A stretch of 64,000 bases of DNA, taken from Minisyncoccota bacterium. Its GTDB lineage: Bacteria > Patescibacteriota > Minisyncoccia > Phycocordibacterales > DATDWN01. Shown here piece after piece: positions 3,871 through 63,142 of the stretch. Each line of letters opens with the position of its first letter. The first letter of the stretch is position 1. Made by a program: the position numbers and the translations under genes. Below the pieces are notes generated by a model. The model did no database searches and had not been told where the DNA came from. It saw nothing but the letters and a program-made list of their open reading frames with translations. Where the stretch lies: positions 2,369 through 66,368 of the forward strand of contig JBAZZC010000006.1 of NCBI GenBank assembly GCA_041658985.1. Reading direction: 5' to 3'.

Positions 3871-5673
3871 ATGGAAATTAGAAACATAGCTATCATAGCC
3901 CACGTAGATCACGGCAAGACCACACTGACTGATGCTCTTATGCGTCAAACAGGAATGGTCACAGAAGAAAACGTGACAATGGATTCAAATGCACTTGAAC
4001 TAGAACGAGGTATTACTATTTATGCAAAAAACACATCCATTTATTATCCGTCCCAAAACTCCGGTAGAGAAGTAACAAAAATAAACATTGTAGATACTCC
4101 AGGGCACTCTGATTTTGGTTCAGAGGTGGAGCGAGTGCTTCGTTCTATTGATACAGTTTTACTTTTAGTTGATGCTCAGGAAGGACCAATGCCTCAAACA
4201 AGATTTGTTTTAAAAAAATCTCTAGAACTAGGATTAAAACCAATTGTTATAATAAACAAAATTGATAAGCCCGCATCCAGACCAGAAGAAGTCCACGAAC
4301 TTGTTCTTGAACTTTTTATGGAGCTCGGAGCAAATGATGAACAGCTAAACTTCACAACTGTCTACGCAATAGGGCGAGATGGAATAGCTAAGATGAAGTT
4401 AGAAGATGAGAGTAAAGATTTGACTCCCCTACTAGAGACAATTCTAGGGGAAGTTCCACCTGCCTCTGGTGACAAAAATCTTCCAGCCAGACTTCAGTCT
4501 TTCAATTTATCATATGACAACTTTCTCGGACGACTTGCTGTTTGTCGAGTATACGAAGGCACAATAAAAAACGGCGATGCTGTTTTTGTTAAACAACATG
4601 AGGGAGGAAAAATTATTCCAGGAAAATTGACAAAGCTTTTTAGTTTTGAGGGAATAAAAAGAAAAGAAATAGAAGAAGCTGTGGCTGGAGATATTGTTAT
4701 GATAGCCGGATTGCCTTCGGTCTATATTGGAGACACAATTTGTAAAGATGAAAACGCAGAGATGCTTCCCTCTATTAACATAGACGAACCAACAATCTCT
4801 CTCAATTTTTTGGTTAATGACTCCCCCTTTGCCGGAAGAGAAGGAAAATATGTGACAGGAAGACAAATCCGAGAAAGACTAGAAAAAGAACTAGAAATAA
4901 ATGTTGGTCTGAAAATTGACTGGAATGATAATTCTCCGTCAATTGGTTATACAGTTTACGGCCGTGGCGAATTACATATTGCCATCCTTCTTGAAAACAT
5001 GCGCCGAGAAGGTTATGAACTTCAAGTGTCACAACCAAAAGTTATCATAAAAGAAAAGGATGGAGTACAACTTGAACCATTTGAGGAAGTAACCATAGAT
5101 GTTCCCGAGGAATTGGCTAGTTCTGTTATATCAAAACTGACCGAAAGAAGAGGAATTCTCATGAATGTAAAGAAAACCCACGGGCACCAGAGAGTAATTT
5201 TTGAAATCCCAACCAGAGGACTTTTGGGTTATAGAGGACAATTTATTGTAGATACAAAGGGTCTGGGAATATTAGCCTCTAGGTTTGTAGAATTTCGTCC
5301 ATATGTCGGTGAGATAAAACGCACAAGTTATGGCTCTATGGTTTCAATGGAAAGTGGTAAGGTTTTGGCTTTTGCACTAGATAATCTCCAACAAAGAGGC
5401 ACTCTTTACGTTGAGCCTGGGGTTGAGGTCTATATTGGAATGGTGATAGGAAATGTTTCCAAGGGTGATGACTTGTCAGTCAACCCAACAAAAGGCAAAC
5501 AACTATCAAACATGCGGGCTTCCGGTTCAGATGATAAAGTCTATCTTGCCGCAACATATAAATTAGATATTGAAAAAGCTATGGAGACAATGAATGCCGA
5601 TGAGTTTATAGAAATTACTCCAAAATCAGTGCGTCTCAGAAAAAAAATAGTAAAGAAACCACTACCTAAGTAG
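3871..5673 (+). CDS. typA: GTP-binding translational GTPase TypA/BipA (start moved to MEIRNIAIIAHVDHGKTT)
   Basis: G1-G4 GTPase motifs (AHVDHGKTTL, DTPGH, NKID), EF-G-like domains and a BipA-type C-terminus. The ORF upstream of Met18 is read-through. Confidence 0.9.
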   Translation: MEIRNIAIIAHVDHGKTTLTDALMRQTGMVTEENVTMDSNALELERGITIYAKNTSIYYPSQNSGREVTKINIVDTPGHSDFGSEVERVLRSIDTVLLLVDAQEGPMPQTRFVLKKSLELGLKPIVIINKIDKPASRPEEVHELVLELFMELGANDEQLNFTTVYAIGRDGIAKMKLEDESKDLTPLLETILGEVPPASGDKNLPARLQSFNLSYDNFLGRLAVCRVYEGTIKNGDAVFVKQHEGGKIIPGKLTKLFSFEGIKRKEIEEAVAGDIVMIAGLPSVYIGDTICKDENAEMLPSINIDEPTISLNFLVNDSPFAGREGKYVTGRQIRERLEKELEINVGLKIDWNDNSPSIGYTVYGRGELHIAILLENMRREGYELQVSQPKVIIKEKDGVQLEPFEEVTIDVPEELASSVISKLTERRGILMNVKKTHGHQRVIFEIPTRGLLGYRGQFIVDTKGLGILASRFVEFRPYVGEIKRTSYGSMVSMESGKVLAFALDNLQQRGTLYVEPGVEVYIGMVIGNVSKGDDLSVNPTKGKQLSNMRASGSDDKVYLAATYKLDIEKAMETMNADEFIEITPKSVRLRKKIVKKPLPK

Positions 5674-6951: not shown

Positions 6952-7099
6952 ATTAATCCGAACACTAACTTTAGCATCGTTGCCTAGTGTTTTCGTATAT
7001 TATTACCCAATTTGATATTTACTATAGAATAATACATAGTTAATACTAAATAACAAGCAACAGTAAAAACACAATGCTAAAGTTAGTGTGCGGATAAAT
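6952..7099. repeat. Paired-arm inverted-repeat element, family 1 copy A (between divergent truB and hisS)
   Basis: Arms TTAATCCGAACACTAACTTTAGCATCGTTG and CAATGCTAAAGTTAGTGTGCGGATAAAT. The right arm ends 1 nt before the hisS ATG. The spacer is AT-rich with outward promoter-like hexamers. Confidence 0.65.
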
Positions 7100-26461: not shown

Positions 26462-26604
26462 ATAAATCCGAACACCAACTTTGACATCGTTACTTCTGTC
26501 CCAAGTTTTGCTAACCAGACTTATCTATGTGTCCATCAATACTTAATGGGTCATATCATTAAAGTAACAATGGGACAATGTCAAAGTTGGTGTGCGGATA
26601 AAAA
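26462..26604. repeat. Paired-arm inverted-repeat element, family 1 copy B (rpoB upstream/leader region)
   Basis: Arms AATCCGAACACCAACTTTGACATCGTTACTTCTGTCCCA and TGGGACAATGTCAAAGTTGGTGTGCGGATAAAA. The arm-specific variants CCAACTTTGAC co-vary in both arms. Confidence 0.65.
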
Positions 26605-27907: not shown

Positions 27908-27912
27908 ACTAG

Positions 27913-28055
27913 TTTATCCGCACACTAACTCTGGTATCGTTGCCTCGTCTCCAGATTTAGTTGTGGTTATTTTTATTTGCGTTTATAAAAGTAATAAATT
28001 TAATATTAATTATGGCAACACTGGAGACAATACCAGAGTTAGTGTTCGGATTAAT
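27913..28055. repeat. Paired-arm inverted-repeat element, family 1 copy C (between the small ORF and lexA)
   Basis: Arms TTTATCCGCACACTAACTCTGGTATCGTTGCCTCGTCTCCAG and CTGGAGACAATACCAGAGTTAGTGTTCGGATTAAT (~40 bp). The left arm ends 5 nt before the lexA ATG. Confidence 0.65.
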
Positions 28056-28255
28056 TAAACTGTACTAAATGCTCTCCCAAACCAATTATTAGCAGACCTA
28101 TTTTCTTTCTTAACTTCTGCCAATCTGGATAAAATAAATCTATGCCTTTTTGCTTCCCTTGCATACGATAAACCTTTTATGATTTTGTGGTCAATAACAT
28201 CATTTAAAACTTCCAATTCACTTCTCAATATTTTTTCTAAATTTTGTTTACTCAT
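28055..28255 (-). CDS. Hypothetical 66-aa basic protein, first gene of the lexA operon (likely SOS-controlled)
   Basis: The ORF lies 36 nt downstream of the LexA box and co-directional with lexA. No family recognised. Confidence 0.4.
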   Translation of the reverse strand: MSKQNLEKILRSELEVLNDVIDHKIIKGLSYAREAKRHRFILSRLAEVKKENRSANNWFGRAFSTV

Positions 28256-46868: not shown

Positions 46869-47005
46869 TTCGTCTTCTAGTATATCAAATTTTTTTCATA
46901 ACAGAAAAAACAATAACAAAGGAAAAAAGTAATCTACTAAAATAATTTGACAAAACCGTCCTTTAATAGGATCATATTGGCTGGACCCTTTCAAGGAGGC
47001 CCGTT

Positions 47006-47326
47006 TTGAAAGCTAGAGGCTTCAACCTTTTCGCACTCGGCGCTCTGTTCGGAGTTCTCCTAACGGCAGGTGTTGGCCGATACAAGGCCAACGACCAGCC
47101 GACGGAGGTCGTCACGAACCACGACTGGACGTGGGTCAAGGTGGAAAACCTCGTGGGCGTACCCACGAAGGGACACGACTACAGTTTCGGTGACATGTGT
47201 AGCATCATGCCTGGCGGGGTACTGGAGGTCCAAAGAAAGGTGGACCCCTGGGTAGTGCTGGAGTACACAAGTCCCCGAGAACCAACCGAGCCCGAGTGTG
47301 GGAGAGCGGGACCATTTTCAGCATGA
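47006..47326 (+). CDS. GC-rich cassette gene: small secreted protein (TTG start, signal peptide)
   Basis: RBS AGGAGG 7 nt before the TTG. TTGACA promoter upstream. Two hairpins follow, the second with T6, at 47372-47460. Confidence 0.45.
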   Translation: MKARGFNLFALGALFGVLLTAGVGRYKANDQPTEVVTNHDWTWVKVENLVGVPTKGHDYSFGDMCSIMPGGVLEVQRKVDPWVVLEYTSPREPTEPECGRAGPFSA

Positions 47327-47492
47327 AGCTGGCTGAGTTCGACAGACGATGGCCTGCGACACGATAAGTACCTCATGGGATCCTGTAGACTGACAATGCG
47401 TCACTCTACAGGATCCCAGCCCCCGAATTGGAAAACTCCGTTCGGTGGGTTTTTTCGTTTAAAAATCACAATATTGAGTTATAACTTTTTCA

Positions 47493-47671: not shown

Positions 47672-48367
47672 TTATTGCCAACCACGAGTTACCAGAGCTG
47701 AGCGGGCTGCAGCCTGTTCCGCCTCCTGTTTGGAAACACCATCACCTGTGGCTACTAAATCTTTGCCAACATATACACCAACCGTGAATCTTTTTTCGTG
47801 GTCAGGTCCGGCTTCTTTTATTGTTTTATATGCAGGAGTAATACCATCAAACTCCTGAGCTTTTTCTTGAAACAAGCTTTTAGCGTCAACGTGACTCCCT
47901 GTTGAAATTATATTTTCTATCTTTGGTGTAAAATTTTTCTCAATGAAGTCTTTTGCGGAATCATATCCTTGGTCAATGTAAATCGCACCAATAAGAGCTT
48001 CTAAAGCATTGGCTAGAATATATTGTCTGGCGCGCCCAACATCTTTGCTCTCACCTTTTGAGAGCAGTAAGTAATCACCCATTCCAAGAACCGTAGCAAT
48101 CTGGGAACAAGTATCTGCATTTACTAAGGCCGACCTGTAAGCGGTTAGTTCCCCCTCGGCCCTGTCTTCATATTTTTTAAATAAATAGTCGGTGATAACC
48201 AATTCCAAAACAGCATCGCCAAGAAATTCCAATCTTTCATTGTGTGCCAGACCAGATTGTTTGTTTTCATTTATATATGAACGATGAACAAAAGCCTGCG
48301 TCAAAAGAGCCTCATCTTTAAATGACAGCCCCGCCTCTTTTTGAAATTTTGCAAAATCTGTTGTCAT
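47672..48367 (-). CDS. rnc: Ribonuclease III
   Basis: Signature ERLEFLGDAVLELVITDYLF and a C-terminal dsRBD. Confidence 0.9.
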   Translation of the reverse strand: MTTDFAKFQKEAGLSFKDEALLTQAFVHRSYINENKQSGLAHNERLEFLGDAVLELVITDYLFKKYEDRAEGELTAYRSALVNADTCSQIATVLGMGDYLLLSKGESKDVGRARQYILANALEALIGAIYIDQGYDSAKDFIEKNFTPKIENIISTGSHVDAKSLFQEKAQEFDGITPAYKTIKEAGPDHEKRFTVGVYVGKDLVATGDGVSKQEAEQAAARSALVTRGWQ

Positions 48368-48374
48368 GGTATTT

Positions 48375-48480
48375 ATACGAATATGCGAACAATGCGAATC
48401 TACGAATGGCTACGAATTAAATGCTGGTTTGATTGTGTTATTCGTTGACATTCGCATCATTCGTTACATTTGTATATTCG
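48375..48480. repeat. Converging arrays of hexamer ACGAAT (x5) and its complement ATTCGT/ATTCGC (x4) in the nusB-rnc intergenic region
   Basis: TATACGAATATGCGAACAATGCGAATCTACGAATGGCTACGAAT ... ATTCGTTGACATTCGCATCATTCGTTACATTTGTATATTCGTATC. Confidence 0.5.
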
Positions 48481-48483
48481 TAT

Positions 48484-49392
48484 CTACTTCTTCAGTAGTA
48501 TATTTATCGCCTTGGTAATTAGTGGCAATATATCATTATAGAAGTTTAAGTCAATTATGTCGGCTAGCTTAAACCATTTAGCATCATCAAGCCCACCCTT
48601 GGCTTCTGGATGTAAATCTTGGTATTTTGCCTCAGCTAAAAAATACGTAACGTGTTTTCTTATCTTGCCTTTTTCTGGATGATAGGTTGGGTATTCATTT
48701 TCACCAAGTTTTTCTTTTATTTTTATATCAAGCCCCAACTCCTCTTTTATTTCTCGAATAGTTCCGTTCTCAACACTTTCATTTTTTGTCTCTTCCGAAT
48801 CACCAATTTTCCCTTTTGATAAAGTCCAGTGACCAAAGACATCGTGAACTAAAGCAAGATAAATATCTTCTCCATCCTTGGCATAAACAACCGCACCACC
48901 CAAATGTTGCATGGGAATATTTGTCGGCATATGCACTTTCCTTTTGTCTTTTGATGTTTCTTCTTTACCGGGCTCTCCCAGTTCTTTGTAAACCGCACCC
49001 AAAACTCCATTAACAAATTTACTTGAGGTCTCTCCACCAAAGGCTTTAGACAGTTCAATGGCCTCGTTTATAGCAACCTTTGGAGGAACTTCCCCTCTAT
49101 CAGAGAACAACAGTTCGTATAACCCAATACGAAGAATATTTCTGTCTATAATACTTATTTTATCTATTGGCCAGTCAGGAGCTGCCTTTTCTATAATCAA
49201 ATCTATATCTTTTTGTTTTTCCAAAACACCGTCTAGTAAATTCTCCATAAATGAAAAATCTCCGTGACCCGGAGCAAATTCCTGTACATTGCGCTTAAAA
49301 ATAGTAGGTATTTCTTTTTTATCTTTTGAGGCAAAGTCCCACTCAAAGAGTGTTTGTAATACTATACTTCTGGAAAGGTGCCTGTTTGCCAT
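48484..49392 (-). CDS. NusB antitermination factor fused to a C-terminal NUDIX hydrolase
   Basis: NusB fold at residues 1-135. The Nudix box GKIGDSEETKNESVENGTIREIKEELGL lies in the C-terminal half. Single uninterrupted 302-aa ORF. Confidence 0.7.
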   Translation of the reverse strand: MANRHLSRSIVLQTLFEWDFASKDKKEIPTIFKRNVQEFAPGHGDFSFMENLLDGVLEKQKDIDLIIEKAAPDWPIDKISIIDRNILRIGLYELLFSDRGEVPPKVAINEAIELSKAFGGETSSKFVNGVLGAVYKELGEPGKEETSKDKRKVHMPTNIPMQHLGGAVVYAKDGEDIYLALVHDVFGHWTLSKGKIGDSEETKNESVENGTIREIKEELGLDIKIKEKLGENEYPTYHPEKGKIRKHVTYFLAEAKYQDLHPEAKGGLDDAKWFKLADIIDLNFYNDILPLITKAINILLKK

Positions 49393-49486
49393 TAAACTAG
49401 TGATTAGGTTCTAGTAACTAGGTTTTAGTATATCAAGAAACATATTCCCTGCCTAGACACTAGAACCTATAACCTTAAACCTAATC

Positions 49487-49702
49487 TTATCTGTCCTCTT
49501 TCTTTGAAAGCTTTTCTCTCTTTGTTCTCTTAGCAATCTTCGCCTGCATATCAATAACTACTCTACCCTTATACTGGCCAGTAACAATAGATGCTCTGTG
49601 ACGTAAGTGCGGAACATTTGTGTTTTTGTCCAAAGTTACAGCAGGAGAAGACAATCGGTGATGAGACCGAGTTCTGTTTCGCTGACTCTTTGTATGACGC
49701 AT
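49487..49702 (-). CDS. rpmF: Probable ribosomal protein L32 (bL32), Cys-less (zinc-free) variant
   Basis: MRHTKSQRNRTRSHHRLSSPAVT...YKGRVV matches the L32 pattern K.R.RR..H.L..P with the Cys positions replaced. Confidence 0.5.
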   Translation of the reverse strand: MRHTKSQRNRTRSHHRLSSPAVTLDKNTNVPHLRHRASIVTGQYKGRVVIDMQAKIAKRTKREKLSKKEDR

Positions 49703-49850
49703 TCTTACAACCATAATTAAAAATCATAACATATCTGTTTTAAAAAAACAACTTTACATACATAAAATAAATCCCAACTTACTTACTACCTCATTATTAT
49801 AAATTAGACAAAAATGTGCGACCGCATTATTTTGTCTAATTTATGACTTA

Positions 49851-50456: not shown

Positions 50457-50631
50457 TTCGTTATTTTAACATACCCTATGTTTACCTAAATAATTTTTTA
50501 TGATATTTCAATTTGGTACAATATATTGTATCAAATTGAAATATTGGAGAGATTGTTTTTTTATAAAAACAAAAAGAGCCGTCGGCGCACGAAACGCAAA
50601 CGGACTCTTTGGAAAAAACGTACTGACACAC

Positions 50632-50898
50632 TTACTTGCGCTTGGCAAGTCGTTGAAGCGCATTATCCGCTTCACGGACTTGCGTCGTCAGGCGAAATAC
50701 CTCAAGACGCAAATCCTCACACTCACGAACCAGACGAACAGCGTTTGCCAAAAGGCTAATCTTGGCGTTGGCATCTGGGTCTGGATTGCCAGAATCAACA
50801 CCATCCTTGAGAAACCTGATTTGGACAAGCATCAGGGCTTTGAAAGCATCAAGGGGAATCTCGAGCTTCCTTCCTGTTACCAACTCTTGCGTACTCAT
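50632..50898 (-). CDS. GC-rich cassette gene b (89 aa), N-terminal paralogue of 50910-51248
   Basis: RBS GGAGGA. Terminator AAGAGCCGT...ACGGACTCTT plus U-run at 50565-50625. Confidence 0.4.
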   Translation of the reverse strand: MSTQELVTGRKLEIPLDAFKALMLVQIRFLKDGVDSGNPDPDANAKISLLANAVRLVRECEDLRLEVFRLTTQVREADNALQRLAKRK

Positions 50899-50909
50899 AC
50901 TTCCTCCAA

Positions 50910-51248
50910 TCAAGAACCTGTTGTTGTCTTGGCCTGCAGTTCAACGAGGCCACAGGTGCATGGCTTGGCCTCGTGAACAACGACACCACCATGACCGATG
51001 ACGGCCGGAACCATGGTGCACCCGTCTGTGTGCTGGATGTACGGCTTCAGCGCCTCGACCTTCGCACGAAGGTCAGCGAGTTCGCGAACCGCAAGGACAG
51101 CAGGCTCGAGGACTTCTTCCTGCTCTCTGGTGTAACCATCACCACCCCCGGTCCTGAGGTAATGAATTTTGATCAGGATTTTCTGCAACACCCGATCAAG
51201 AGAGTCGACGAGCTTTCTTCCTTTGACCAAATCACTCAGGTCGTCCAT
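50910..51248 (-). CDS. GC-rich cassette gene a (113 aa) with a CxC motif near the C-terminus
   Basis: RBS GGGAGG. N-terminus ...LVKGRKLVDSLD... parallels ...LVTGRKLEIPLD... of gene b. Its stop lies 12 nt upstream of gene b's start codon. Confidence 0.4.
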   Translation of the reverse strand: MDDLSDLVKGRKLVDSLDRVLQKILIKIHYLRTGGGDGYTREQEEVLEPAVLAVRELADLRAKVEALKPYIQHTDGCTMVPAVIGHGGVVVHEAKPCTCGLVELQAKTTTGS

Positions 51249-51389
51249 TGACTTTGCCTCCCACCACAAAATACCACTACTTTTCCCAAATATCAAGCCC
51301 CTCTCCACCATAATGATGACATGCTATAATGTGAATCGAGCCTGTATTCACTTTATAACTTTCTACTTTATAACTTTATAACTCCTCAC

Positions 51390-60424: not shown

Positions 60425-60570
60425 TTTACCCGCTACACTAACTTTACCATTGTTTTTGTATTCTAATTCAAAATGTTGTTGAATAGTGTTTTTTTCATGA
60501 GACTACTGAAAATAATAGTAGTATTCTGTTAGAAAAACAGAATGATGGTAAAGTTAGTGTGCGGGTTTAC
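60425..60570. repeat. Paired-arm inverted-repeat element, family 1 copy D (between divergent gyrB and pheS)
   Basis: Arms TTTACCCGCTACACTAACTTTACCATTG and AATGATGGTAAAGTTAGTGTGCGGGTTTAC. The arm-specific variants CCCGC and TTTACCAT co-vary. Confidence 0.6.
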
Positions 60571-63001: not shown

Positions 63002-63142
63002 ATCCGCACACTAACTCTAGCATTGTCTTTTTTGTTGCAGGGGTTAGTATCAAAATAATAGATTTTATTAATATAATAGTAGATAGCATTACTAAGTTTG
63101 GAAAGACGATGCAACGATGCCAGAGTTAGTGTGCGGATAAAA
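63000..63142. repeat. Paired-arm inverted-repeat element, family 1 copy E (between the GT2 stop and the next gene's start)
   Basis: Arms AAATCCGCACACTAACTCTAGCATTGTC and GATGCCAGAGTTAGTGTGCGGATAAAAC. The left arm starts at the GT2 stop codon and the right arm ends 1 nt before the ATG at 63144. Confidence 0.65.

Follow-up and report, generated by a model that had tools for sequence, protein, structure and literature searches.

A conserved NusB protein with a C-terminal Nudix domain in Parcubacteria

The nusB::nudix locus and its surroundings

The DNA analysed here, referred to as the window, is a 64-kb stretch (64,000 nucleotides) of a contig from a Minisyncoccota bacterium. It contains a gene that joins a NusB domain to a Nudix domain, located between the genes for ribosomal protein L32 and RNase III. 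The features of the locus are as follows, in the direction of transcription.

49487..49714, minus strand: rpmF (ribosomal protein L32), upstream neighbour (Pfam Ribosomal_L32p)
49405..49469, no strand assigned: inverted repeat in the rpmF-nusB spacer (repeat and folding analysis; lineage-specific)
48484..49392, minus strand: nusB::nudix gene, 302 codons and a stop (ORF list, sequence, homologues)
48979..49392, minus strand: NusB domain, aa 1-138 (PF01029, TIGR01951, AF2 model against 3r2c, F126 alignment)
48904..48978, minus strand: linker, aa 139-163, GEPGKEETSKDKRKVHMPTNIPMQH (pLDDT, pTM, family alignment)
48487..48903, minus strand: Nudix domain of the ApnA-hydrolase type, aa 164-302 (PF00293, Foldseek, PDB profile search)
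48730..48813, minus strand: Nudix box, aa 194-221, G-X10-E-X7-R-E-I-K-E-E-L-G-L (translation, column counts in 81 and in 356 relatives)
48368..48483, minus strand: 116-nt spacer between the fusion gene and rnc, with a CGAAT/ATTCG-rich hairpin (folding; lineage-specific)
47672..48367, minus strand: rnc (RNase III), downstream neighbour (Pfam Ribonuclease_3 and dsrm)

The ORF starts with ATG, encodes 302 aa and has no internal stop. The protein consists of a NusB domain (aa 1-138), a disordered linker rich in Lys, Glu and Pro (aa 139-163) and a Nudix domain (aa 164-302). A sequence-only reading of the window had proposed that a single ORF of this length encodes a complete NusB together with a Nudix domain, and the Pfam search bore this out with both domains above their cut-offs: NusB (PF01029) at aa 7-136 with 119.2 bits (cut-off 23.1) and NUDIX (PF00293) at aa 166-281 with 43.3 bits (cut-off 21.1), so that the C-terminal half is indeed NUDIX. 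A hidden frameshift or stop between the domains was looked for and not found; the ORF is uninterrupted. Full-length homologues are encoded at all 80 related genome loci, with the match in these best 80 loci spanning aa 1 to about 300, indicating that the fusion is not due to chance. The uninterrupted ORF is also common to independent assemblies from NCBI, JGI, ENA and Logan. An artefact, whether a frameshift, read-through, a chimeric assembly or two genes joined, is refuted by the recurrence of the intact ORF across hundreds of species; one nonsense variant, on contig L087, is its sole support, and we give it practically no credence.

The gene order around the fusion is conserved. The rpmF gene lies upstream in 78 of the 80 loci and rnc downstream in 79, and the order rpmF - nusB::nudix - rnc - smc is found in 78 to 79 of them. 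The same order surrounds two distant fusions that are 35 to 41% identical to the 302-aa protein, with rnc following the fusion gene after 5 and 15 nt; many of the 80 loci have a gap of no more than 20 nt here, or an overlap of the two genes. In the window the two genes are 116 nt apart without overlap, which we count against the interpretation favoured below.

The two spacers flanking the gene are structured in this lineage. The arms of the inverted repeat (49405-49422 and 49452-49469) are 18 nt each and 89% complementary, with 29 nt between them, and a promoter-like TAGGCA-17-TATACT with TG is located in the loop. As RNA, the rpmF-nusB spacer has a folding energy of -31.3 kcal/mol (z = -3.7), which none of 200 shuffles reached, and the arm motif was matched 2 times in a search where chance would yield 0.09 matches. 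The upstream 18-bp inverted repeat of the sequence-only reading is real, but it is absent from even the closest relatives. No counterpart was detected by blastn in the related loci L001 to L085, nor a second copy in the window. The spacers between rpmF and the fusion gene range from 10 to 260 nt across loci, and those of L001 and L002 are short and unstructured (53 to 67 nt, folding at about -5 kcal/mol), so the repeat was rejected as a conserved regulatory element. The hairpin in the spacer before rnc (-29.2 kcal/mol, z = -2.8) was likewise rejected as a conserved element, being without a counterpart in related loci. An Rfam scan of two GC-rich intergenic islands returned no credible match.

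The NusB half, the linker and the Nudix half

The first module of the protein is a canonical NusB. It scores 126.8 bits against the NCBIfam nusB model TIGR01951 (cut-off 88.35), and AF2 predicts an all-helical NusB fold with a pLDDT of about 80 to 97 over aa 1-138. In Foldseek comparisons, this model matched Aquifex NusB (3r2c/3r2d) with a TM of 0.88 to 0.89 and an rmsd of 1.8 to 1.9 A, and E. coli 3imq with an rmsd of 1.5 A. The structure 3r2c is Aquifex NusB within the NusB-NusE-BoxA complex. In Aquifex NusB, the BoxA contacts include Phe122, which stacks on U8, and E81 (PMC3177189). F126 of the fusion protein aligns with this phenylalanine and D83 is the counterpart of E81, a conservative change; both residues are invariant among 93 relatives. 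We infer that the NusB half has ribosomal protein S10 as its partner and boxA as its RNA target. Models for RsmB match only the NusB half, and only partially (58 bits against a cut-off of 319 in NCBIfam), and no RsmB/F methyltransferase domain was found in the protein with Pfam or NCBIfam. There is no second NusB within the 64-kb window or the flanks of the 80 loci, no second NusB or Nudix in the window at E < 1e-5, and no rRNA leader within the window.

The linker was predicted to be disordered, as shown by the structure prediction that the sequence-only reading had proposed for this region: the AF2 pLDDT is below 50 at aa 141-157 and the pTM is 0.50, indicating that no fixed interface between the domains is predicted. 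Its length varies from 14 to 44 aa across the family, with a composition rich in K, E and P. The family shares a conserved basic motif at the start of the linker, GEPGK[DE]E.SKKKK, followed by a variable second half.

The Nudix half has the alpha/beta/alpha-sandwich fold of the superfamily in the predicted structure, and both this structure and its sequence profile place it among the asymmetric ApnA (Ap4A/Ap6A) hydrolases. The best Foldseek match was the Aquifex Ap4A hydrolase 3i7u (TM 0.82 to 0.84), and the top matches comprised 3i7u, Rv2985/MutT1, 1vc8, 4mpo and 1ktg. In the PDB profile search, the top 8 distinct sequences were all ApnA hydrolases (E values of 1.3e-18 to 8.8e-11), followed by Dcp2 decapping enzymes as the next-best matches; NrtR and AraR were also found among the structural and profile matches. 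The RppH equivalog model NF001936 remained below threshold (15 bits against a cut-off of 118). E. coli RppH was not among the 60 PDB profile matches listed, and BdRppH gave a partial match only (3.6e-5).

The Nudix box GKIGDSEETKNESVENGTIREIKEELGL (48730-48813) had been read as canonical. All of its residues are present (E205, R213, E214, E217, E218, G220 and L221), with the EX7REUXEEXGU part exact, but it spans 28 residues rather than 23 and has GX10E rather than GX5E. The spacing from G194 to E205 results from a 5-aa insertion at aa 198-202, which occurs in only 73 of 356 relatives, the rest having the canonical GX5E. Y234 lies 13 residues past the box, as does its Aquifex counterpart, and corresponds by alignment to the base-stacking tyrosine. 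K193, the lysine of the PKG motif, and Y285, the second stacking aromatic, align with the Aquifex, CT771, Ndx1 and human enzymes; the roles of this lysine and of the base-stacking aromatics in ApnA hydrolases have been described (PMC4734340, PMC2425470, PMC5389931). G267 takes the place of a glutamate that Aquifex, CT771 and human NUDT2 carry in the loop preceding helix 2, and Thermus Ndx1, an active Ap6A hydrolase, likewise has glycine there. The loop glutamate is the catalytic one in the eukaryotic enzymes and acts as the catalytic base in the C. elegans Ap4A hydrolase (E103).

Spread of the fusion and variation of its catalytic residues

The distribution of the fusion across CPR/Patescibacteria was examined as the earlier reading had suggested, and at least 344 species-level Patescibacteria genomes, along with thousands of protein clusters, were found to have the full-length architecture. 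The best 120 clusters (73 to 93% identity) are all full-length at about 300 aa, and both Pfam domains are recorded in 119 of them, the remaining one (P0101) having PF01029 only. With a profile built from distant members, the best 120 matches were again all NusB plus NUDIX, and the fusion is retained down to about 33% identity. The fusion is thus unusual, as had been claimed, in comparison with model bacteria, but in a large Parcubacteria/Paceibacteria clade it is the standard nusB gene. With synonymous sites saturated in nearly every pair, dN/dS could be computed for a few pairs only; these rough values, 0.02 to 0.15 in both domains, support the conservation qualitatively. The members are all annotated simply as NusB. 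We found no description of a NusB-Nudix fusion in the literature on NusB with Nudix, on fusions or on CPR/Patescibacteria, and the 2017 review of the Nudix clan does not mention NusB. The arrangement in these ultra-small CPR/Parcubacteria is real, conserved and unstudied.

Among the apparent cases examined, none was a true free-standing gene of the fusion-type Nudix clade, which is recognized by a GGLDD signature. Two candidates (P0129 and P0133) are truncated at the edges of their contigs, and a third (P0142 on contig L087) has a single in-frame TAA at the codon for the invariant Tyr135. True free-standing Nudix relatives are at most 46% identical. Viral contigs gave one weak match only, indicating that the domain is not a phage feature. 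One free-standing relative (P0150) has mobile or phage-like surroundings.

The catalytic residues of the Nudix half vary across the family, whereas the nucleotide pocket hardly does. The five key box residues are all intact in 169 of 356 proteins, and E214 is kept in only 196; on an approximate tree, this glutamate changes at least 52 times, and no compensating acidic residue was found in the proteins without it. Its equivalent is present in 17 of 22 free-standing relatives and, counted at the level of 50% clusters, in 10 of 39 fusions. The pocket residues are 97 to 100% conserved (K193 in 355 of 356, Y234 in 351 and Y285 in 353), and the free-standing enzymes keep them likewise. With the glutamate of the "RE" pair gone in about half of the family, the trait kept family-wide would be binding rather than turnover. 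What is conserved looks like binding of a nucleotide polyphosphate, with hydrolysis optional. An acidic residue at position 217, E218 and D269 stay conserved, and with these two or three carboxylates some residual activity may persist. The protein of the window probably does hydrolyse its ligand, as all catalytic residues are present; for the same reason, hydrolysis is plausible in the host organism. The label "hydrolase" may fit this 302-aa member but, judging from the residue pattern, not describe the conserved function of the family.

Interpretation and comparison with known systems

NusB and the rrn antitermination complex are standard textbook material. To our knowledge, no enzymatic or nucleotide-binding appendage of NusB has been described so far. 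In one of the most abundant uncultivated bacterial groups such an appendage is the rule, hidden by the plain annotation "NusB". The architecture, conservation, synteny, fold assignment, pattern of residue conservation and flexible linker are directly established, whereas which ligand the Nudix half binds, and whether it catalyses a reaction, is a matter of inference. The fusion hints at a direct link of rRNA transcription to RNA 5' ends or to stress nucleotides. The sequence-only reading had suggested RNA decapping or a coupling to nucleotide or alarmone pools. These are still the leading candidate functions: members of the ApnA-hydrolase group, into which the domain falls, act on Ap4A, and PPP-RNA is a further substrate of human NUDT2.

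The reading we favour, tentatively and with slightly less than an even chance of being correct, takes the protein to be a bona fide NusB by which a purine-polyphosphate-binding module is brought to the boxA-bound nascent rRNA leader. The boxA-bound NusB half would be part of the antitermination and rRNA-folding complex on the nascent leader. The lysine-rich, disordered tether of about 25 residues could hold the Nudix pocket near the leader RNA on the RNA-exit side of RNA polymerase, where the pocket would bind a purine nucleotide bearing a polyphosphate. Most plausibly, the ligand would be the triphosphate or Np4 cap at the 5' end of the nascent leader, with free Ap4A or an NTP as the alternative. 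Hydrolysis, where it occurs, would leave a 5' monophosphate on the leader and so feed its processing along with RNase III, which is presumably co-transcribed. We count in favour of this reading the domain assignments and their conservation, the flexible tether and the conserved position next to rnc, which ties the operon to rRNA processing. Several published observations bear on this proposal: the rrn antitermination complex is believed to retain the leader so that it can pair into the RNase III site (PMC6614801); Np4A caps occur on bacterial RNA and are removed by the Nudix enzyme RppH (PMC7044304, PMC8833179); and NUDT2, a Nudix enzyme belonging to this subgroup, converts PPP-RNA to P-RNA (PMC8616924). 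Besides the distance to rnc in the window, we count against it that the closest solved Nudix relatives act on free dinucleoside polyphosphates, that the RppH model fails and that glycine replaces the loop glutamate at position 267. The frequent loss of catalytic residues disfavours hydrolysis as the conserved role.

The erosion of the glutamates with retention of the pocket would be expected if a mainly non-catalytic Nudix receptor for Ap4A, ATP or another alarmone tuned NusB and with it rRNA antitermination and processing. CF Im25, a non-catalytic Nudix protein that binds Ap4A/ATP in RNA processing (PMC2425470), is a precedent, and NrtR and AraR, found among the matches above, provide an analogy in which a degenerate Nudix domain serves a DNA-binding domain as the sensor of ADP-ribose-type effectors. 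However, the disordered linker and the lack of a modelled interdomain interface leave no obvious allosteric route, and the protein of the window retains all catalytic residues; we regard such sensing as possible, if somewhat unlikely. A broader proposal, that the Parcubacteria antitermination factor is itself a nucleotide receptor whose largely non-catalytic Nudix domain either senses Ap4A-like alarmones or captures the nascent leader by its 5' polyphosphate or Np4 cap, appears unlikely to us. If it were true, this would set the efficiency of rRNA elongation, protection and hand-over to RNase III, a regulatory input to the antitermination complex without a counterpart in model bacteria.

Another explanation is a fusion without functional coupling, in which a housekeeping Ap4A/NTP pyrophosphatase was joined to NusB only for co-expression in a streamlined genome and the halves act independently. 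The flexible linker and independently folding domains would fit, as would the nearest relatives, which are ordinary ApnA hydrolases of free nucleotides, and the stop on contig L087 would part the halves. But a housekeeping hydrolase should retain its glutamates, as the free-standing relatives mostly do and the fusions do not, and the GGLDD-signature clade is not truly free-standing in any of the apparent cases examined. The retention of the fusion at low identity next to rnc and the conserved start of the linker also argue against independent halves, and this explanation too is an unlikely one in our estimate. Highly doubtful is a purely structural accessory, in which the Nudix fold would serve without a nucleotide ligand as a protein or RNA scaffold that stabilizes NusB/S10 on the transcription complex, analogous to SuhB, with its inositol-monophosphatase fold, in E. 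coli. Catalytic residues are dispensable in the family, as this would predict; the pocket tyrosines and lysine should then drift like the glutamates, yet they are about 99% conserved.

If the Nudix half acts on the 5' end of the leader, as in our favoured reading, co-transcriptional 5'-end processing would be wired into antitermination; if it senses Ap4A, this would be a long-sought effector role for the "mysterious" alarmone. The natural intact and degenerate variants are a ready-made series for separating binding from hydrolysis, and the hypotheses can be addressed with recombinant protein, the organisms being uncultivated.

Among known systems, canonical NusB (TIGR01951/PF01029; 3r2c and E. 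coli 3d3b) is the direct counterpart of the N-terminal 138 aa, which pass the equivalog model, superimpose with an rmsd of 1.5 to 1.9 A and have in common with it the U8-stacking phenylalanine (F126) and an Arg-rich N-terminus. Canonical NusB ends at about 140 aa, whereas the fusion continues with the GEPGK...KKKK linker and a Nudix domain of 140 aa. RsmB/Sun has a similar design logic, with a NusB-like RNA-binding domain at the N-terminus of a 16S rRNA m5C methyltransferase. It differs in that its partner is a methyltransferase rather than a Nudix domain, and in that the NusB half of the fusion scores as a true NusB (126.8 bits).

For the Nudix half, the asymmetric ApnA hydrolases compared were those of Aquifex (3i7u), Chlamydia (CT771, 4ilq), Thermus (Ndx1, 1vc8), human (NUDT2, 3u53) and C. 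elegans (1ktg). They have in common with the fusion the W-T-x-x-K-G motif, the tyrosine at box +13, the second stacking aromatic and the box residues, at an identity of only about 21 to 26%. Unlike them, the 302-aa protein has the 5-aa insertion in the box and Gly267 in place of the loop glutamate of the Aquifex, CT771 and human enzymes, and the fusion family is joined to NusB and has variable catalytic glutamates. CF Im25/NUDT21 and NrtR/AraR are likewise Nudix proteins with degraded box glutamates, in which a nucleotide-binding module belongs to a factor that handles nucleic acids; CF Im25/NUDT21 binds Ap4A/ATP, does not hydrolyse them and acts in pre-mRNA 3' processing (PMC2425470). No specific relationship to them is detectable, however, and the 302-aa protein still has all box glutamates. 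RppH, Dcp2 and NUDT2 acting on PPP-RNA provide the working analogy for the removal or recognition of a 5' polyphosphate or cap that we propose for the fusion, with the difference that its Nudix domain fails the RppH equivalog model.

Fusion gene and its distribution

The sequence-only reading had described one ORF joining NusB to a Nudix hydrolase domain, and this description held. Both Pfam models scored above their gathering scores, NusB at aa 7 to 136 (119.2 bits versus 23.1) and NUDIX at aa 166 to 281 (43.3 bits versus 21.1), and the NCBI equivalog model for NusB, TIGR01951, scored 126.8 bits (cut-off, 88.35).

Features of the fusion gene
48484..49392, minus strand: nusB::nudix ORF, ATG start, 302 aa, no internal stops
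48730-48813: Nudix-box string quoted in the sequence-only reading, translated position confirmed
48937-48978: conserved linker start, aa 139-152, GEPGK[DE]E.SKKKK across the family

The Nudix box had been called canonical. This is correct for its residues, as R213-E214-I-K-E217-E218-L-G220-L221 and E205-X7-R213 fit the consensus GX5EX7REUXEEXGU exactly, but not for its first spacing, which is G194-X10-E205 rather than GX5E because of a 5-residue insertion at aa 198 to 202 (DSEET). Only 73 of 356 relatives carry the insertion, and the rest have GX5E.

We compared the best 120 protein clusters (73 to 93% identity) from NCBI, JGI, ENA, and Logan assemblies. All were full-length, at ~300 aa, with both Pfam domains recorded for 119 of them (P0101 had PF01029 only); where named, they are plain "NusB" in the source databases. 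Across CPR/Patescibacteria, at least 344 stretches encode the fusion in a scan with one genome per GTDB species, and residues 1 to ~300 were covered in all of the best 80 of these loci (62 to 90% identity). A hidden frameshift or stop between the domains, named beforehand as a finding that would refute the reading, is contradicted by this uninterrupted ORF, full-length in both sets. The fusion is neither an artefact nor rare. Titles among the loci include Zambryskibacteria, Kaiser-, Adler-, Nomura-, and Taylorbacteria, and Paceibacterota/Parcubacteria; "Saccharibacteria" titles on several TPA assemblies were taken to be generic labels. The closest named relative among the matches listed is a Candidatus Zambryskibacteria MAG of the Parcubacteria group (91% identity). 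With a profile made from 21 distant family members, the best 120 of 5352 matches were again all NusB+NUDIX proteins, and the 50%-cluster representatives include ~35 to 40 full-length fusion lineages, reaching down to ~33% overall identity. In one NCBI assembly (GCA_013565675.1; locus L087, 542-1462), the fusion gene is interrupted by one in-frame TAA where the invariant Tyr135 is normally encoded, and NusB and Nudix are called as separate genes; the TAA reflects a sequencing error or else a nonsense variant of recent origin.

Domains, linker, and pocket residues

The AF2 model was confident for aa 1 to 138. The NusB half matched Aquifex NusB from the NusB-NusE-BoxA complex with a TM of 0.88 at 1.9 Å and superposed on E. 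coli NusB at 1.5 to 1.9 Å. R4, R8, F16, D83, N85, R88, E93, E110, K116, F126, and N128 are invariant in 93 relatives, and F16 presumably corresponds to Y18, an S10-interface residue of E. coli NusB. In HMMER alignments, F126 pairs with Aquifex F122, which stacks on BoxA U8 and whose mutation disables E. coli NusB, and D83 pairs with Aquifex E81, which reads the same uracil (PMC3177189). Judged from sequence and model, the NusB half has all the features expected in a working NusB. No further NusB was found within the 64-kb window.

The linker was predicted by AF2 as a low-confidence tether between two well-folded domains, with pLDDT below 50 at aa 141 to 157, a pTM of 0.50, and no fixed orientation of the domains. 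Its length across the family ranges from 14 to 44 residues (median, 26), with K, E, and P abundant. Conservation is strong at the start (Y135-K-E-x-G-E-P-G-K-[DE]-E-x-S-K-K-K-K) and gives way to variability in the second half. The linker has the look of a tether carrying a basic patch rather than of an allosteric hinge, and the patch could contact RNA or another factor.

A search with the Nudix domain alone matched only 858 of 1.84 billion representative proteins at E <= 1e-3, which indicates a narrow subfamily. A profile made from the Nudix domains of 20 fusions best matched the Aquifex Ap4A hydrolase (1.3e-18), followed by Chlamydia CT771 (3e-14), the Thermus Ap6A hydrolase Ndx1 (2e-13), human NUDT2 (3.5e-11), and the C. 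elegans Ap4A hydrolase (8.8e-11); Dcp2 decapping domains (2e-9) and MutT1 came after these ApnA hydrolases. The best Foldseek match was 3i7u (TM, 0.82 to 0.84), with Rv2985 ("Nudix diadenosine polyphosphatase"), Ndx1, CT771, and 1ktg next. Profile and fold agree in pointing to an ApnA-hydrolase type. A C-terminal half that is not Nudix, the other finding named beforehand as refuting, is contradicted by its score above the Pfam NUDIX gathering score. None of the NCBI equivalog models was reached by this half (RppH, 15 bits versus 118; MutT1, 29 versus 475). Among the relatives listed, the closest true free-standing one is P0150 (L083, 5001-5453), with 46% identity and an intact box; its neighbours are phage-integrase, DNA-methylase, and Phage_rep_O genes, a mobile element. 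In a 577-aa protein, P0204 (L085, 3605-5338; ENA contig ctg506970l), a NusB-like domain and this Nudix type follow a long N-terminal extension that weakly matches a cold-shock domain. Its gene neighbours encode an NB-ARC STAND NTPase, an HEPN_Swt1 protein, and a DDE transposase, and the module seems to have been re-used there in a defence-island-like setting.

Residue conservation was counted in 356 full-length fusions.

Nudix-half residues kept in 356 full-length fusions (window protein numbering)
W189: 356/356
K193: 355/356
Y234: 351/356
W273: 354/356
Y285: 353/356
E218: 350/356
E205: 307/356
R213: 302/356
E217: 280/356, plus 41 Asp
E214: 196/356; Gly 59, Lys 47, Val 21

By HMMER alignment, K193 corresponds to the Lys in the W-T-x-P-K-G motif and Y234 to the Tyr that follows the box (within "IHY" in Aquifex and "LNY" in human). 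Y285 takes the place of the second aromatic residue, which is Y in the Aquifex enzyme and F in CT771, Ndx1, and the human one. Adenine stacking and first-phosphate binding have been assigned to these positions from published structures (PMC4734340, PMC2425470, PMC5389931). The five box residues are jointly intact in only 169 fusions. Among 50%-cluster representatives, 10 of 39 fusions retain E214 versus 17 of 22 free-standing relatives, and on an approximate UPGMA tree the state of E214 changes at least 52 times (K193, 1; Y234, 5; Y285, 3). No compensating acidic residue was found in E214-less proteins. Where the Aquifex, CT771, and human enzymes carry a Glu, the window protein has G267; active Ndx1 likewise has Gly. 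The full catalytic set is present in the window protein and in 42 of 62 relatives at >=80% identity. Mean pairwise identity was 0.69 for NusB and 0.60 for Nudix, and dN/dS was 0.02 to 0.15 where computable, with synonymous sites saturated; these comparisons indicate purifying selection on both halves. We take the nucleotide-polyphosphate pocket to be strongly constrained, and efficient hydrolysis not to be.

Gene order and intergenic elements

The order dnaE(-), rnhB-rpmF-nusB::nudix-rnc-smc was found in essentially all loci. Among the best 80, rpmF lies upstream in 78 and rnc downstream in 79, and loci lacking the expected neighbour are mostly cut at a contig end. In many loci the gap between the fusion gene and rnc is <=20 nt or the genes overlap. 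RNase III excises pre-16S and pre-23S rRNA from the leader/spacer duplex. Even at P0180 (41% identity) and P0262 (35%) the rpmF-fusion-rnc-smc order persists (fusion-rnc gaps, 5 and 15 nt), indicating that the RNase III link is old in the clade. In locus L035, a second, separate Nudix ORF of 147 aa (4000-4444) lies just downstream of smc, so a further Nudix protein is encoded close to the fusion locus in some of these genomes.

Intergenic features of the window
48368-48483: 116-nt nusB::nudix-rnc spacer with its own hairpin
49405-49422 and 49452-49469: inverted-repeat arms, 18 nt each, 89% complementary
47006..47326, plus strand: island ORF, 106 aa, hydrophobic N-terminus, no Pfam match
50632..50913 and 50910..51311, minus strand: overlapping island ORF pair, no Pfam match
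6952-7099, 26466-26599, 27910-28057, 60435-60560, 63002-63138: copies of a repeated element

The spacer before rnc forms a long imperfect hairpin of CGAAT/ATTCG repeats (-29.2 kcal/mol; z = -2.8). Given its position directly upstream of rnc, it could act as a site of RNase III autoregulation, by analogy with the E. coli rnc leader. Several related loci have other large, strongly folding inserts at this place.

The 18-bp inverted repeat noticed upstream of the fusion gene exists, and the rpmF-nusB::nudix spacer folds at -31.3 kcal/mol (z = -3.7). Related loci have rpmF-fusion spacers of 10 to 260 nt, those of the two closest relatives being 53 to 67 nt and almost unstructured and others carrying unrelated, strongly folding inserts. 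By blastn, neither window spacer, including the hairpin before rnc, had a counterpart in related loci L001 to L085 or a second copy within the window, and with spacers this variable the repeat was rejected as a conserved part of the fusion system. The window holds 27 inverted-repeat pairs of this sort. We treat this one as a lineage-specific intergenic hairpin outside the conserved system; it may be an rpmF mRNA 3' stabiliser or local promoter context, and its loop contains a promoter-like TAGGCA-17-TATACT with TG upstream.

Two GC-rich islands (47000-47450 and 50600-51350; 50 to 58% GC versus a ~37% background) are intergenic, at positions variable among related loci. Rfam gave no credible match for either, and they are probably horizontally acquired cassettes. 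The repeated element (~130 to 150 nt) has terminal inverted repeats that are related among the copies (ATCCG[AC]ACAC[TC]AACT...CAT[CT]GT / ACAATG...AGTTAGTGTGCGGAT); its five copies in the window suggest a MITE- or REP-like repeat.

Possible functions and known systems

BoxA in the rrn leader is bound by NusB-S10. The rrn complex is thought to keep the leader near the RNA exit, allowing pairing with the spacer to give the RNase III site (PMC6614801). A tether of ~25 residues on NusB would put the Nudix pocket in reach of the leader, where its natural ligand would be the purine triphosphate at the 5' terminus or else an Np4 cap, which is gained when RNA polymerase initiates with Np4A (PMC7044304, PMC8833179). 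NUDT2, of the same Nudix subgroup, trims PPP-RNA to P-RNA (PMC8616924). Hydrolysis is plausible in the window organism; in relatives with a degraded box, the Nudix domain may only hold the 5' end or bind free ApnA.

We tentatively favour, at a little under an even chance, a tethered module that binds 5' polyphosphate or ApnA and here probably hydrolyses it. The constrained pocket would also suit a Nudix domain that senses free nucleotide, an account we consider rather unlikely. An uncoupled housekeeping fusion seems unlikely by a similar or slightly greater measure. Erosion of the box would fit a pure, SuhB-like scaffold and the retained K193, Y234, and Y285 would not; we regard it as improbable. 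An artefact has a negligible chance, given the full-length homologues. The residue-erosion pattern and the rnc link offer concrete, testable hypotheses; the architecture itself is easily found.

The NusB and Nudix domain families are both textbook. A literature search found no paper on a NusB-Nudix protein, which is also missing from the Nudix clan review; the fusion is widespread, conserved, and uncharacterised. Its nearest design analogue is RsmB, which pairs a NusB-like domain with an rRNA methyltransferase, and its nearest functional analogues are CF Im25 and NrtR, nucleic-acid factors that carry a degenerate Nudix module.
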